Of a DNA stretch of 36,052 nt, positions 5,651 to 9,973 are shown one piece after another. A program made the translations under genes and the position numbers. The notes beneath the pieces are model-generated. The model did not search any database. It was not told the DNA's origin and saw only the letters and a list, made by a program, of their open reading frames with translations. Positions within the stretch are counted from its first letter, which is position 1. Each line of letters starts with the position of its first letter. The stretch comes from a virus, in IMG/VR virus record IMGVR_UViG_3300042199_000067, one strand, 5' to 3'.

Positions 5651-8600
5651 ATGGCTATACAGCAAAACAATTTTTATACAGATTTTGAAGATTATGGATT
5701 TGAAGATTATTTCAATGATCCATATGGTTATAACGCCGGCTATGCACAACCTGTAAATCCTGCTGATGTGTTCAGTCCAGGCAACTTTAATATGTATGAG
5801 GGTACTCAAAACAGTAGCAACGACACATACAATATTGGAAATGATGGTATACCAGAATATATTCCTGTAGATGTTGGTGGCGGACAATTCATTGCTCCAA
5901 CATACGATTATAGTTATAATGAACCTGTGTATACGCCTGAACCAGTTTATACTCCACCAGCGTATGTAGAACCTGAACCAGTTTATACGCCAGAACCTGT
6001 ATATACGCCTCCGGTATATGTTGCACCAGAACCAGTTTACACACCTCCCCCACCTCCCCCGGCACCGGTTGTAACTCCTCCACCTCCTCCTCCAGAACCA
6101 CCTGCATATGTTGCACCAGAACCTACGCCACAAGTTACAATCAATACACCACAAGCAACTCAGAATTATGGCCCCGTACCAGGCAGTAGCGTAGGTGGCG
6201 ATGGTGCCGGCCCTAATTATAACAATCTATACACAGGTGGTGGATTTGGTGGCGGTGGTGGATTTGGTGATTATGGTGGCGACAACACAACTTACACATA
6301 TGATGATGGAAGTACATTAACAGTTGATAATGGTGGTAATGTTGTTGATTATACAAACGCAACAGATTACACAGTTCCGGTTGTAGATTTAAGTCCTGTT
6401 GTTGGTACCGGCGGTGGTAAAGGTCCTGAAGATTATGGTCCTACACAGGCTGAAATTGATGCTGAGAATGCTAGAATTGCTGCCGAACAACAAGCCTACG
6501 AACAAGAAATGGCTCGTCAACAAGCCGCCTATGAAGCAGAGCAACAACGAATTGCTGAACAACAAGCCTACGAAGCAGAGCAAGCACGATTAGCACAAGA
6601 AGAGGCACAACGCCAAGAACAAGCACGAATCGCAGCCGAACAAGAGGCAGCAAGAGTAGCACAAGAACAAGCACGAATCGCAGCCGAACAAGAAGCGCAA
6701 AGACAAGCAGAATTAAAAGCACAACATGATGCTGAAGTTGCGGCAGAACAGGCACGACAGGCTGAACTACAAAGACAAGCAGAAGCCGCAGAGGCAGCAA
6801 GAGTAGCCGCAGAAGAAGCAGCCAGACAAGCCGCTGATGCTGCCGCAAGAACTGCCGCAGAAGAACAATTAAGATTAGCAAATGAAGAAAAGGCTAGAAT
6901 TGCAGCCGAACAAGAAGCCAATCGTATTGCGGCAGAACAGGCAGAGGCCGCAAGACAGGCTGAGGCGGCACGACAAGCAGAAGCAGCCAGAGTAGCGGCA
7001 GAGCAAGAAGCCGCTAGAATTGCGGCACAAAATGCAGCCAATGTTACAATAGATACTAGTGGCGCAGTAAGTCCTAGTGATTTAGCAAACACAATTAATA
7101 TTGGTAACACATATAGTACCAATGTTGCTGATTATACATCTTTTAATGCTGATGCAACTAAAGTTGGCAACACAGTATTGAATACTCCAGGTGCGTTTGG
7201 CGAGACTATTCCTAGTGATGTAATTGCAAACATACCTAACAATAGCACAGTTATACAAACTGGTAACAATACATTTACAGCAATTGATAATACTGGCAAC
7301 ATAACAGTATTAGATAGTACAGGTAATGTTATTAGTGGCGGTAATAGAGACTTTGATATTACTGTACAATATGTTGACCCAGTTACTGGTCAATTAGTTA
7401 TTAGCAGTACAGGTGGTAATGGTACTGGCGGTACAGGAACAGATACTACAGCAAACAATACTACTATTGGTGGTATTTTAGGTACTGGTACAAGTAGCGA
7501 AACAGCAAATACTACAGCATTATTTGGTCCAGGATCAAGTCATGGTCCTAATACATTTACAACAGATTATGGTATCATTGGCACTGGTAATTATGTTGCC
7601 AATACTACACCTACATTTGACTCAGCAAACAATGTAGTCATATTAAGTGATGGTACTATTGTTCCAATCGTAGATTTAACTACACCCACAAGTAACGCAA
7701 ATGTTACAACTGGTCCAGTAACGCCAACAACTGATACTGGTAATGTTAACATCACAGGACCAGTAACGCCAACAACTACGATTGATACTGGTAATGTATT
7801 GACCAATACTAATGTAGATACTACAACTGTAAACAGCAATAATACAACAACTACTACATTTGACGATGGTTCAACTGTAACCATTGATACAAACACTGGC
7901 AATATTGTAGGTGCTACAGATACTAGTGGTAATACGACTACAATTGGTAGCGTAAGTCCAACAGATTTAGCAAACGCTATGAATGCTACAAATGTCGCAA
8001 CAAGTGGAAACACAACTACTAGTGGCAATGTGACTACAACTGTATTTGACGATGGTAGTACATTGACTATTGATAACACTACAGGAAATATTACTGCGAC
8101 TGATAGCACAGGTGGAAATGTTACGACAACAACTACAGATGGTGGCACAACGACAACTACGGTTGGTGGCACAGATGTTGTAACTCCTGTCGTTCCAGAT
8201 ATAATCATAGGCTCTGAGGGCACTGGTACAGGTACTGGAACTGGAACAGGCGTAGATGTTGGAACCGGCACTGGCACAGGTACAGGTACAGGTACAGGTA
8301 CAGGTACAGGTACTGGCACAGGTACAGGTACAGGTACAGGCGTAGATGTTGGAACAGGTACAGGTACTGGAACTGGAACAGGCGTAGATGTTGGAACAGG
8401 TACTGGAACTGGTACAGGCGTAGATGTTGGAACAGGTACAGGTACTGGAACTGGAACAGGCGTAGATGTTGGAACTGGAACTGGTACAGGCGTAGATGCT
8501 GGTACTGGAACTGGTACAGGCGTAGATGCTGGTACTGGAACTGGTACAGGAACTGGTACTGGTAGTGGCACTGGAGTAGATGTTGGAACAGGAACTGGTA

Positions 8601-9973
8601 GTGGCACTGGAGTAGATGTTGGAACCGGAACTGGTACAGGATCAGCAGTAGTTGTTGGTCCCGTAAGCCCTGAAGATATTATTAGTGAAGGAACTGGAAG
8701 TGGAACAGGAACTGGAATTGGAAGTGGAACAGGAAGTGGTACAGGTACGGGAACTGGCACGGGTACAGGAACTGGTACAGGCAGCGGAACTGGCGTTGGA
8801 ACTGGAACTGGAACGGGCAGTGGAACCGGAAGTGGAAGTGGCACTGGAAGTGGTACTGGCACCGGAACGGGCAAAGGCACCTCTGAAGGTACAGGTACAG
8901 GGTCTGGGACAGGCACTGGAAGTGGTACTGGAAGTGGGACAGGAACGGGAACTGGCTCTGGAACGGGTTCTGGTACTGGTACAGGCACTGGGACGGGAAC
9001 TGGATCGGGTACAGGCTCAGGCACGGGAACGGGTACGGGAACGGGAAGTGGTTCAGGCAGTGGTACCGGTACTGGAACAGGCAAAGGTACGGGGACGGGA
9101 AGTGGTACAGGAACAGGAACAGGAACAGGAACAGGAACAGGAACAGGAACAGGAACAGGAACAGGAACAGGAACAGGAACAGGAACAGGAACAGGATCTG
9201 GCACAGGAACCGGCTCAGGAACCGGCTCAGGAACAGGAACTGGTAGTGGAACTGGTACAGGGACTGGAACGGGTACGGGGACAGGTACAGGCACCGGCAC
9301 TGGCACAGGTACTGGGACGGGGACAGGTACAGGCACCGGCACTGGCACAGGTACTGGGACGGGAACTGGGACTGGCACTGGTACCGGTATTGGAACGGGT
9401 ACTGGTACAGGAACAAAGATAAAACTACAGATACCTAAAGGATTGAATCCAGGCTTTATTGCGCCCACACCATTCTATAATACAACTAGACCTGAACAAG
9501 CAAAGTATTATTATGGTACACATGCATATCAACCAGGACCAACATTTGATCCTAATTTGTATAATTATGCGCCGGCTGCACCAAACACACCTTTTGGATC
9601 ACAGTATGTTGCACCTATGATGACTAGTCAACAAATCATGGACTTAATCATGGGCAAGCAATTACAACAACCTAATATTACACCAGCAACAAAAGTTATA
9701 CCAACTCCACCTGGTAGTAAGCCAATTGAACAACTAGGCATTTATGCTCCACAACTAAATCAAATACCTGCTACGCCTGTCAATCAAGTTACACCTACGA
9801 CACCAGGTCAGAGTGGTGTTACTAACGAACAATTCAAAGAAGTTAGTAAAGCATTGGGTAGTGATTGGTTGATTCGTCAACAAAAGGCAGCAGAGACTGG
9901 TGATTGGGCAACATATTATCAAATACAGGCACAAGTGTATGCGATATTAAATCCTAACATTAATGCTGGTTAA
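5651..9973 (+). CDS. 1440-aa mosaic fibrous protein: Pro-rich PVYTPE repeats, Gly-rich patch, about 200-aa Ala/Glu/Gln coiled coil, N/T-rich FDDGSTxTID modules, about 400-aa (Thr-Gly)/(Ser-Gly) tract, globular C-terminus
   Basis: A single uninterrupted 4.3-kb frame. GTG at 5648 and ATG at 5651 follow AAAAGG. The non-repetitive flanks fix the frame through the repeat tract, where all six frames are open. Confidence 0.85.
5921..6130 (+). repeat. Degenerate tandem coding repeats: (E)PVYTP(E/P) x about 6 plus two PPPPPP runs
   Basis: gaacc(t/a)gt(g/t)ta(t/c)ac(g/t)cc units are read directly. Protein: [67 protein letters not shown]. Confidence 0.9.
6440..7040 (+). repeat. Ala/Glu/Gln/Arg coiled-coil-coding low-complexity region with internal direct repeats ([15 protein letters not shown] x3)
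   Basis: caagaacaagcacgaatcgcagccgaacaaga occurs twice, 45 nt apart (about 6616 and about 6661). gcagaggccgcaagacag-type units repeat near 6940-6990. There are no helix breakers over about 200 aa. Confidence 0.85.
9110..9193 (+). repeat. Perfect (GGAACA)x14 tandem repeat inside the TG tract
   Basis: Counted unit by unit from 9110 to 9193. The next unit is ggatct. Confidence 0.95.
9277..9360 (+). repeat. Perfect 42-nt tandem duplication (2 copies) inside the TG tract
   Basis: ggggacaggtacaggcaccggcactggcacaggtactgggac at 9277-9318 is repeated exactly at 9319-9360. Confidence 0.95.

Follow-up and report, generated by a model that had tools for sequence, protein, structure and literature searches.

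A Gly-Thr/Ser low-complexity tract with a few young repeat expansions in a 1440-residue viral protein

A long array of Gly-Thr dipeptides is encoded in a 36,052-nucleotide (nt) stretch of viral DNA, IMG/VR record IMGVR_UViG_3300042199_000067; we refer to this whole stretch as the window. The array, hereafter the tract, occupies positions 8219-9415 and lies inside a single plus-strand gene for a protein of 1440 amino acids (aa). By a scripted check, its 1197 nt are 399 in-frame codons, continuous with the open reading frame (ORF) at 5648/5651-9973, and the repeat unit is two codons, in line with an initial annotation of the window. That annotation had also labelled the tract a 1.2-kilobase (kb) microsatellite. 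Our results lead to a different description: the tract is a protein-level low-complexity region with a few young expansions, and not a 1.2-kb microsatellite. The gene is laid out as follows.

5651-9973, plus strand: single gene of 1440 aa that holds the tract (ORF 5648/5651-9973)
5918-6124: PEPVYTP-type repeats, in frame, 54-nt period
6236-6280: Gly-rich stretch of the same gene
6449-7042: EQ/A-rich helical repeat (EQARIAAEQ-type), in frame, 48-nt period
8210-8644, plus strand: block 1 of the tract, (GT)n broken by nine VDVG/VDAG anchors (8252-8623)
8279-8308, plus strand: exact (GGTACA)5, within block 1
8645-8686, plus strand: non-repeat divider of 14 aa, conserved as GPVSP(E/T/D)DII between the blocks of two relatives, L003 and L013
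8687-9415, plus strand: block 2 of the tract, ~243-244 aa of (G-T/S)n that I, V, K and E rarely interrupt, most of it scrambled at synonymous sites
9110-9193, plus strand: exact (GGAACA)14, periodic span 9107-9196
9277-9360, plus strand: exact 42-nt tandem duplication (9277-9318 = 9319-9360), with identity running to 47 nt
9416-9970, plus strand: conserved C-terminal domain of 185 aa, with a core motif at 9440-9598 followed by a terminal three-helix segment
7591-9468, minus strand: spurious (VP)n ORF on the antisense strand that results from the GGN-ACN composition
8682-9416, minus strand, and 8685-9422, plus strand: further spurious ORFs, by-products of the same composition

The tract adjoins the upstream side of the C-terminal domain, which is the only well-conserved domain of the protein. 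From the N-terminus, the modules run as PEPVYTP repeats, Gly-rich stretch, EQ/A-rich repeat, a T/N-rich region in which the motif (F/Y)DDGST(L/V)T(I/V)D occurs three times, the two blocks of the tract and the C-terminal domain. Within the tract, Gly, Thr and Ser account for 354 (89%) of the 399 residues (G 183, T 142, S 29, V 21, D 10, others 14), and the local GC content is 51%, against ~38% for the genome. The exact repeats reported in the initial annotation, (GGAACA)14, (GGTACA)5 and the 42-nt duplication, were all reproduced by script. The anchors of block 1, given there as 2 to 12 TG units apart, are separated by 3-13 units when measured. Tandem Repeats Finder reports higher-order periods of 30, 42 and 78 nt on 8225-8640, and a period of 6 with 120.8 copies and 70% matches on 8690-9414. 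Perfect runs make up ~15-20% of the tract; the remainder is degenerate and uses all four Gly codons, all four Thr codons and Ser codons from both the AGY and TCN families.

The statement that all six frames are open does not hold: only the GT frame and the antisense VP frame are free of stops over the full tract, while block 1 has three stop-free frames out of six and block 2 has four. The spurious ORFs that had been attributed to the open frames do exist, as listed above. On contigs of other assemblies that begin inside the tract (L030 21-341 and 362-892; L046 3-329, minus strand), the Joint Genome Institute (JGI) gene caller takes a wrong or antisense frame and restarts the real gene at a TTG at 9443. 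Because of such mis-framing, the 176-aa database 'protein' P0003 is the C-terminal domain alone. A phase-variable on/off locus was considered and rejected, as a 6-nt in-frame unit cannot shift the frame and the tract lies 2.5 kb inside the ORF.

To separate repetition at the DNA level from repetition that the protein imposes, we shuffled synonymous codons 300 times with protein sequence and codon composition held fixed. The longest exact repeat is 84 nt, compared with a mean of 24 nt and a maximum of 38 nt in the shuffles, and the longest perfect hexamer run is 15 units, compared with a maximum of 5. Because these repeats exceed the null, we interpret the 14-copy run and the 42-nt duplication as recent DNA-level events. 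The claim of fresh tandem duplications thus stands for these elements, but not for (GGTACA)5, which is unexceptional by itself, since the shuffles likewise reach 5 copies. Across the tract, the fraction of codons that match the codon two positions on is 0.27, versus 0.238 ± 0.02 in the null, and most of the tract is synonymously scrambled; it is on this point that the label of a 1.2-kb microsatellite fails. GGA makes up 43% of Gly codons in the tract versus 19% genome-wide. Outside the fresh runs, DNA repetitiveness is approximately what the protein sequence forces, which points to constraint on the protein with occasional slippage on top. The exact runs and the duplication consist of perfect or near-perfect short units arranged head to tail, as in coding simple-sequence repeats; the 6-nt unit is a multiple of three in the reading frame, and that predicted frame continues into the conserved C-terminal domain. 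Long pure runs in relatives, (GT)17 in L003 and (GAS)12 in L013, are fully scrambled at synonymous sites as well.

Copy number was compared in contigs from JGI metagenomes and Logan assemblies of sequencing runs, at least 12 other samples in all; these contigs were found via their encoded proteins, with similar places collapsed to one. Exact-pattern scans of metagenome and viral contigs with the left flank of the GGAACA run gave no match. Their identity to the window is 99.99-100% across stretches of up to 22 kb. One of them, L034, carries a complete gene copy, called by JGI as the same 1440-aa gene, with the same 1197-nt tract and a single nucleotide polymorphism (SNP) relative to the window, and three independent assemblies reproduce the tract (the window, L034 and, for the part that it covers, L030). 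Block 1, (GGTACA)5 and the 42-nt duplication show no variation in any of the contigs that span them. Within the gene, length differences between near-identical contigs are confined to the GGAACA run, with the following copy numbers.

14 copies: the window, L034 and L030
13 copies: L035/L047 (a closed contig of 36,045 nt) and L031
10 copies: L032
at least 17 copies: L046 (the contig ends inside the run)

Contig ends cluster at the same place. Three of four closed contigs of ~36 kb end exactly at the GGAACA run; the fourth ends at a poly-A tract (window 1-11 = 35926-35936), where the window's own contig ends exactly. Three more contigs, of ~35.3-35.5 kb, begin at 9201, 9262 and 9477, with a computed shortfall of 380-670 nt of tract, and assemblies from at least six samples terminate inside the tract. 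Besides the GGAACA run, the variable sites seen in the genome are the poly-A tract (A11 in the window and L037; A10 in L034, L035, L036 and L038) and two SNPs. No length differences were seen in the PEPVYTP and EQ/A repeats in contigs crossing 5918-6124 and 6449-7042. The copy series and the contig ends together form the pattern that would be expected of a hypermutable repeat in a clonal population.

Two side observations concern these contigs. Four contigs, all from Logan assemblies with k=31, end at window positions 5994, 6253 and 6643. Contig Ga0451513_0000276 (L034/L044), at 36,094 nt, is 42 nt longer than the window, while the 21 kb of it that were read differ by one SNP and one A; either the unread region, corresponding to window ~15.6-30.3 kb, or an extended terminal overlap must account for the extra 42 nt.

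More distant relatives were collected by using the 236-aa protein encoded downstream as an anchor, which yielded 27 syntenic IMG/VR loci. The upstream gene at these loci is hypervariable (564-1455 aa) and almost always has a conserved motif near its C-terminus; a profile of the C-terminal domain finds 102 database proteins, all unnamed and without a Pfam domain. Every relative inspected (~16 of the 27) has a low-complexity segment just upstream of the conserved domain, and its chemistry differs among them, as follows.

Window: (GT)n with VDVG/VDAG anchors; block 1 / block 2 of 153 / 244 aa
L003, the closest relative (flanks at 78-92% aa identity): (GT)n with E/V/Q interruptions; 101 / 206 aa
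L013 (IMGVR_UViG_3300036981_000004, 101-3682): collagen-like (GAS)n, Pfam Collagen 1e-29; 130 / 229 aa
L021: GNxT-rich linker
L016, L018 and L027: (PPTL)n linker, also written PTLP-type
L007: PTTP linker
L022: PVTPP linker
L029: PGTQ linker

Tract lengths thus differ between the window and its closest relative, a comparison that the initial annotation had proposed. L013 has the two-block layout and the GPVSPDDII divider of the window protein, and its collagen-like tract matches tail-fibre PHROGs; its DNA repetitiveness is minimal because its Ser codons alternate between the AGY and TCN families. Since a linker is kept while its chemistry changes, what is conserved would be the presence of a long flexible or extended linker and not its sequence. 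The N-termini also vary. Some relatives have glycine-zipper-like hydrophobic N-termini and others a 'GDTxLAHI(N/T)PEEA...NPxTGLPEF' motif there; L014, L016, L018, L021 and L027 carry it in the form 'GDTxLAHI(N/T)PxEA...NPxTGLPEF'. In annotated phages, the gene with this GDTxLAHI-type motif sits between a 'stabilization protein' and a 'DNA transfer protein'. The gene of one distant relative is auto-annotated 'tail tape measure protein', and its neighbour there is a 'DNA transfer protein'.

Searches with the protein itself returned little. The 1440-aa protein has no PHROG, Pfam or PDB match and its exact sequence no database record, the cluster-member listing for the L034 copy is also empty, and PHROG and Pfam are silent for seven of eight homologues searched. 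A homologue search with the unique T/N-rich region (aa 481-857) and tblastn searches against phage records with the C-terminal domain and the 791-aa neighbour gave no match. An AlphaFold2 model of the C-terminal domain, with a predicted local distance difference test score (pLDDT) of 72, has no PDB fold match, and its BFVD matches are uncharacterised homologues only. In a single-sequence AlphaFold2 model, the tract has a pLDDT of 30-40 and no secondary structure, which is weakly consistent with disorder.

Although rare, long Gly-Thr arrays recur among viral proteins. In IMG/VR, a scan for (GGNACN)12 found at least 120 contigs (L053-L132 among them), mostly with (GT)n in ORFs of at least 300 aa, so that the tract is less unusual in phages than the initial annotation had supposed. 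Among the 80 contigs examined, 57 have a GT-frame ORF of at least 300 aa, tracts reach 98 dipeptides, and none has the C-terminal motif of the window-protein family. Their tracts are synonymously scrambled too, since the median longest perfect hexamer run is only 3, and in 14 of the 80 the tract lies within 100 nt of the locus end. Several tracts lie inside very large mosaic proteins, many of 1000-1900 aa, for example L120 4655-10267 and L105 1-4140 (both minus strand). Some (GT)n-bearing proteins share a C-terminal 'DDIPAxLxDGEFV...G.GS...G...L' motif, and others an N-terminal 'GDTxLAHI(N/T)PxEA...NPxTGLPEF' motif ('LAH(I/M)(T/N)PxE...NPxTG') that also occurs in the window-protein family; one viral protein (L073 532-3936, minus strand) combines (GT)n with a lytic-transglycosylase-like domain. 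The mosaic (GT)n proteins may form a broad, undescribed class of virion or ejection proteins. Full-text literature searches for Thr-Gly or Gly-Thr repeats in phages gave nothing relevant.

Taken together, these results make it probable that the tract encodes a low-complexity Gly-Thr/Ser linker of ~400 residues in which two-codon units are gained and lost through slippage or unequal pairing, with selection acting on the composition and approximate extent of the linker. Replication slippage on the hexanucleotide units, and unequal pairing between the 30-78-nt higher-order units, would add or remove units while leaving the frame intact. Selection would maintain a spacer that is long, Gly-rich, flexible or extended, and interrupted at its centre by GPVSPxDII, its exact length and repeat type being free. 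Synonymous substitutions would then wear down DNA identity and damp more slippage. Because this decay would stabilise the older parts, only the youngest expansions would now be labile, chiefly (GGAACA)14 and possibly also the 42-nt duplication. From the fresh-repeat excess, the scrambling elsewhere, and the turnover at a conserved position among relatives, we infer that slippage is the mechanism, that selection on length is relaxed and that the tract serves as a spacer.

The genomic setting bears on what kind of protein carries this linker. An exact 127-nt direct repeat is present at both ends of the window (1-127 = 35926-36052); the window is therefore a closed assembly, circular or terminally redundant, of a genome of ~35,925 base pairs. 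Overlaps of 127 nt fit a maximum k of 127, and the assembly probably came from a k=127 de Bruijn assembler. Pfam SU10_portal and SU10_MCP are found on the portal and capsid of identical contigs, and by these assignments the genome is a complete podovirus with predicted SU10-like portal and capsid. Its sole relative among deposited phages is an uncultured record, MW202484, 'Podoviridae sp.'. Other genes are located as follows.

346-1377: nucleotide-sugar epimerase/dehydratase (Pfam Epimerase 4e-44, GDP_Man_Dehyd), directly upstream of the structural block
1374-2156: 260-aa protein without a family match, after the epimerase gene
2191-4380: 729-aa protein, upstream of the repeat gene
10006-10716, plus strand: 236-aa Q/A-rich protein, downstream of the repeat gene, the synteny anchor
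13880-14311: Dps/ferritin-like protein (Pfam Ferritin 2.5e-15; PHROG 'DNA binding protein')
18197: terminase
20132-20986: DUF6734 protein (Pfam 6.5e-25), between the large terminase and the portal
21028: portal
24894: major capsid
27945-31415: 1156-aa fibre-like protein
33246-35866: Prim-Pol and helicase

The genes that adjoin the repeat gene are all on the plus strand. The 729-aa upstream protein matches Kuravirus tail-fibre genes at 22-25% identity and also weakly matches 'stabilization proteins' of Methylophilales phage Venkman and phage DSL-LC04. In Kuravirus Bas86, the genes that come after the matching tail gene encode a second tail fibre, a membrane protein, a transglycosylase, two 'DNA ejection proteins' and two large proteins annotated as hypothetical. 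The corresponding place in the window has five genes, of 414, 1440, 236, 791 and 255 aa, several of them Q/A/G-rich; SU10 gp20-24 are five ejection proteins (PMC9509320). The repeat gene thus occupies, by synteny only, a late-operon position after tail genes within a multi-gene block. We label its product a 'probable ejection or internal virion protein' because of this synteny with Kuravirus and SU10 ejection-protein genes, the sole basis for the label. That the tract is a spacer in an ejected or internal virion protein, as position and synteny suggest, is a tentative reading with nearly as much to be said for it as against it.

Other observations were made in this neighbourhood. The Dps/ferritin-like gene comes straight after the putative ejection-protein block. 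The epimerase next to the structural block might be linked to host or virion glycan modification; family scans of the window proteins detected no glycosyltransferase that could tie it to Thr glycosylation. The 1156-aa fibre-like protein has short tandem repeats of its own, such as TACCGCAAATACAGCAAA x2.5 at 28172-28216 and an 18-nt period at 30483-30524, as well as recurring 'NFANFAGN' motifs, and it is 100% identical in the other samples examined.

Several observations weigh against the picture of a slippage-prone linker in an ejection protein, and they concern the copy numbers, the linker lengths and the affinities of the protein. A de Bruijn walk of the window gives 9 or 10 copies at k=55 and 12 or 13 at k=77, with the periodic loop traversed zero times or once, and 14 copies at k of at least 99. 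The 10- and 13-copy versions therefore coincide with the 'loop once' outputs of a 14-copy run at two standard metaSPAdes k values, and length variability, perhaps even the exact copy number, could be a short-read assembly artefact in a population with a single tract length. The 10-copy contig and one 13-copy contig are short (1.9-2.1 kb) and probably of low coverage, and contigs routinely break in the tract. We nonetheless consider this explanation doubtful, since one 13-copy version belongs to the complete 36,045-nt contig, which includes both flanks; a run of at least 17 copies is not a possible collapse product of 14; and the 14-copy tract recurs in three assemblies. Furthermore, all exact repeats are at most 84 nt, shorter than 127 nt, which should let a single haplotype assemble without difficulty; even so, three of the four closed contigs end at the run. 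The slippage-driven, length-variable locus of the initial annotation is thus borne out in part, in that lengths differ in L003 and that 10, 13, 14 and at least 17 copies are seen; polymorphism is suggested and unproven because two of these values equal the k=55 and k=77 loop outputs. On balance, true copy-number polymorphism is the likelier state. The similar linker lengths of three relatives (~310-400 aa in total, despite different repeat units) hint at some selection on length instead of free drift. Combined with the perfect run's apparent series of alleles in a population that is otherwise clonal and the collagen-like stalk at the homologous position in L013, they could be taken to indicate an adaptive contingency locus, whose copy-number changes are selected for tuning the reach of an ejection conduit or fibre, host range or evasion. 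This is improbable: a 6-nt unit is unable to switch the gene on or off, 1-4 units alter a ~400-aa linker by at most 2%, relatives' linkers and proteins (564-1455 aa) vary widely in length and the linkers also in chemistry, and the alleles themselves may be assembly artefacts.

As to affinities, the PHROG, Pfam and PDB fold searches found neither similarity to a characterised ejection protein nor a membrane- or peptidoglycan-acting domain, and the collagen-like tract of L013 with its tail-fibre PHROG matches fits an external trimeric fibre as well as an ejection protein. Mainly because of this collagen-like homologue, an external tail fibre or appendage, with (GT)n as an exposed and possibly Thr O-glycosylated stalk, stays a live alternative, albeit an unlikely one. 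The T/N-rich region looks like beta-rich fibre sequence, and the epimerase/dehydratase gene, 4 kb upstream, belongs to the same gene string. However, the conserved part of the protein is C-terminal and the variable part N-terminal, the reverse of the usual fibre layout; relatives' N-termini are glycine-zipper-like or of the GDTxLAHI type found beside stabilization and DNA transfer proteins; the window has a separate fibre-like gene at 27945-31415; and no glycosyltransferase was detected. The remaining possibility, that the tract is non-coding repeat DNA (a satellite, an array resembling clustered regularly interspaced short palindromic repeats (CRISPR) with block 1 as repeats and spacers, or an antisense (VP)n gene), would accommodate the several open frames, the regular spacing of the anchors and the choice of other frames by gene callers on truncated contigs. 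It is effectively refuted: the GT frame runs into a C-terminal domain conserved in 102 proteins and its N-terminal modules are shared with relatives, the neighbouring genes are all on the plus strand, scans for Rfam families, transfer RNAs and cas-like signals were empty, and the antisense ORF is lost where relatives use other repeat types. A bolder version of the linker reading would make the tract a tunable 'ruler' or tether in a podovirus ejection protein: interchangeable repeat linkers of 300-400 aa (GT, GAS, Pro/Thr) would set the reach of the C-terminal domain across the host envelope, the hypermutable run would create standing length heterogeneity in an otherwise clonal phage population, and (GT)n tracts, since they recur in many large viral proteins that are unrelated, would be a general, undescribed structural element of phage virions. 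We regard this as a long shot.

The feature is the Gly-Thr dipeptide form of well-known kinds, phage structural-protein repeat linkers and coding simple-sequence repeats, and it involves no new mechanism. If the copy differences are real, the in-frame repeat is the fastest-evolving site in an otherwise clonal environmental phage. The tract also explains a practical problem, in that most short-read assemblies of this phage break in the gene and gene callers mis-frame it. Chemically different linkers in one slot, a collagen-like one included, offer a testable handle on the role of linkers in podovirus virion or ejection proteins, and long (Gly-Thr)n tracts emerge as a module that recurs in viral proteins and has yet to be characterised.

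A close structural parallel is the collagen-like (Gly-X-Y)n tract of phage tail fibres and virion proteins, which is likewise a long Gly-rich tandem repeat in a phage structural protein with copy number that differs between relatives; L013 holds a true (GAS)n at the homologous position. The period is 3 residues there and 2 here, which makes a collagen triple helix impossible for the window protein. That candidate was rejected on its G-T period and on the lack of a Pfam Collagen (PF01391) match; the L013 homologue does qualify. The Drosophila period Thr-Gly repeat has ~14-23 dipeptides encoded by degenerate hexanucleotides, with an in-frame length polymorphism attributed to slippage. It shares with the tract the dipeptide, the degenerate hexanucleotides and the synonymous heterogeneity among units, but it belongs to a eukaryotic clock protein without homology, whereas the tract has ~180 dipeptides in two blocks. 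The Ser-Asp (SD) repeats of staphylococcal Clf/Sdr proteins (the R region) are a length-variable stalk of degenerate 6- or 18-nt units, with strain-dependent copy number; they carry glycans added by dedicated enzymes and extend a ligand-binding domain outward from the cell wall. Here too a dipeptide repeat of hundreds of residues is built from degenerate short units between domains. The residues and the organism differ, and glycosylation and ligand-domain projection are features of the SD repeats.

Phage proteins themselves provide two further comparisons. Tape measure proteins contain tandem repeats and homorepeats, and G-, S- and T-rich tracts are common in them (PMC13585406). Like the window protein, they are large and contain repeats or low-complexity sequence, and their length may determine a physical dimension; the difference is that the window encodes a portal and capsid of the SU10 podovirus type, and no tail tube or tape measure module was recognised in it. 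A tape measure protein was rejected as a candidate on this ground, with no tail tube, sheath or chaperone families among the large plus-strand ORFs scanned. The podovirus ejection proteins, SU10 gp20-24 and T7 gp14-16 (PMC9509320, PMC8954989), differ from the window protein in that it has no sequence or fold similarity to any characterised one. The likeness lies in gene position, within a five-gene run after a tail gene, in the lytic-transglycosylase-like domain of the (GT)n-bearing protein L073, and in a character that is poorly conserved, mosaic and partly disordered.

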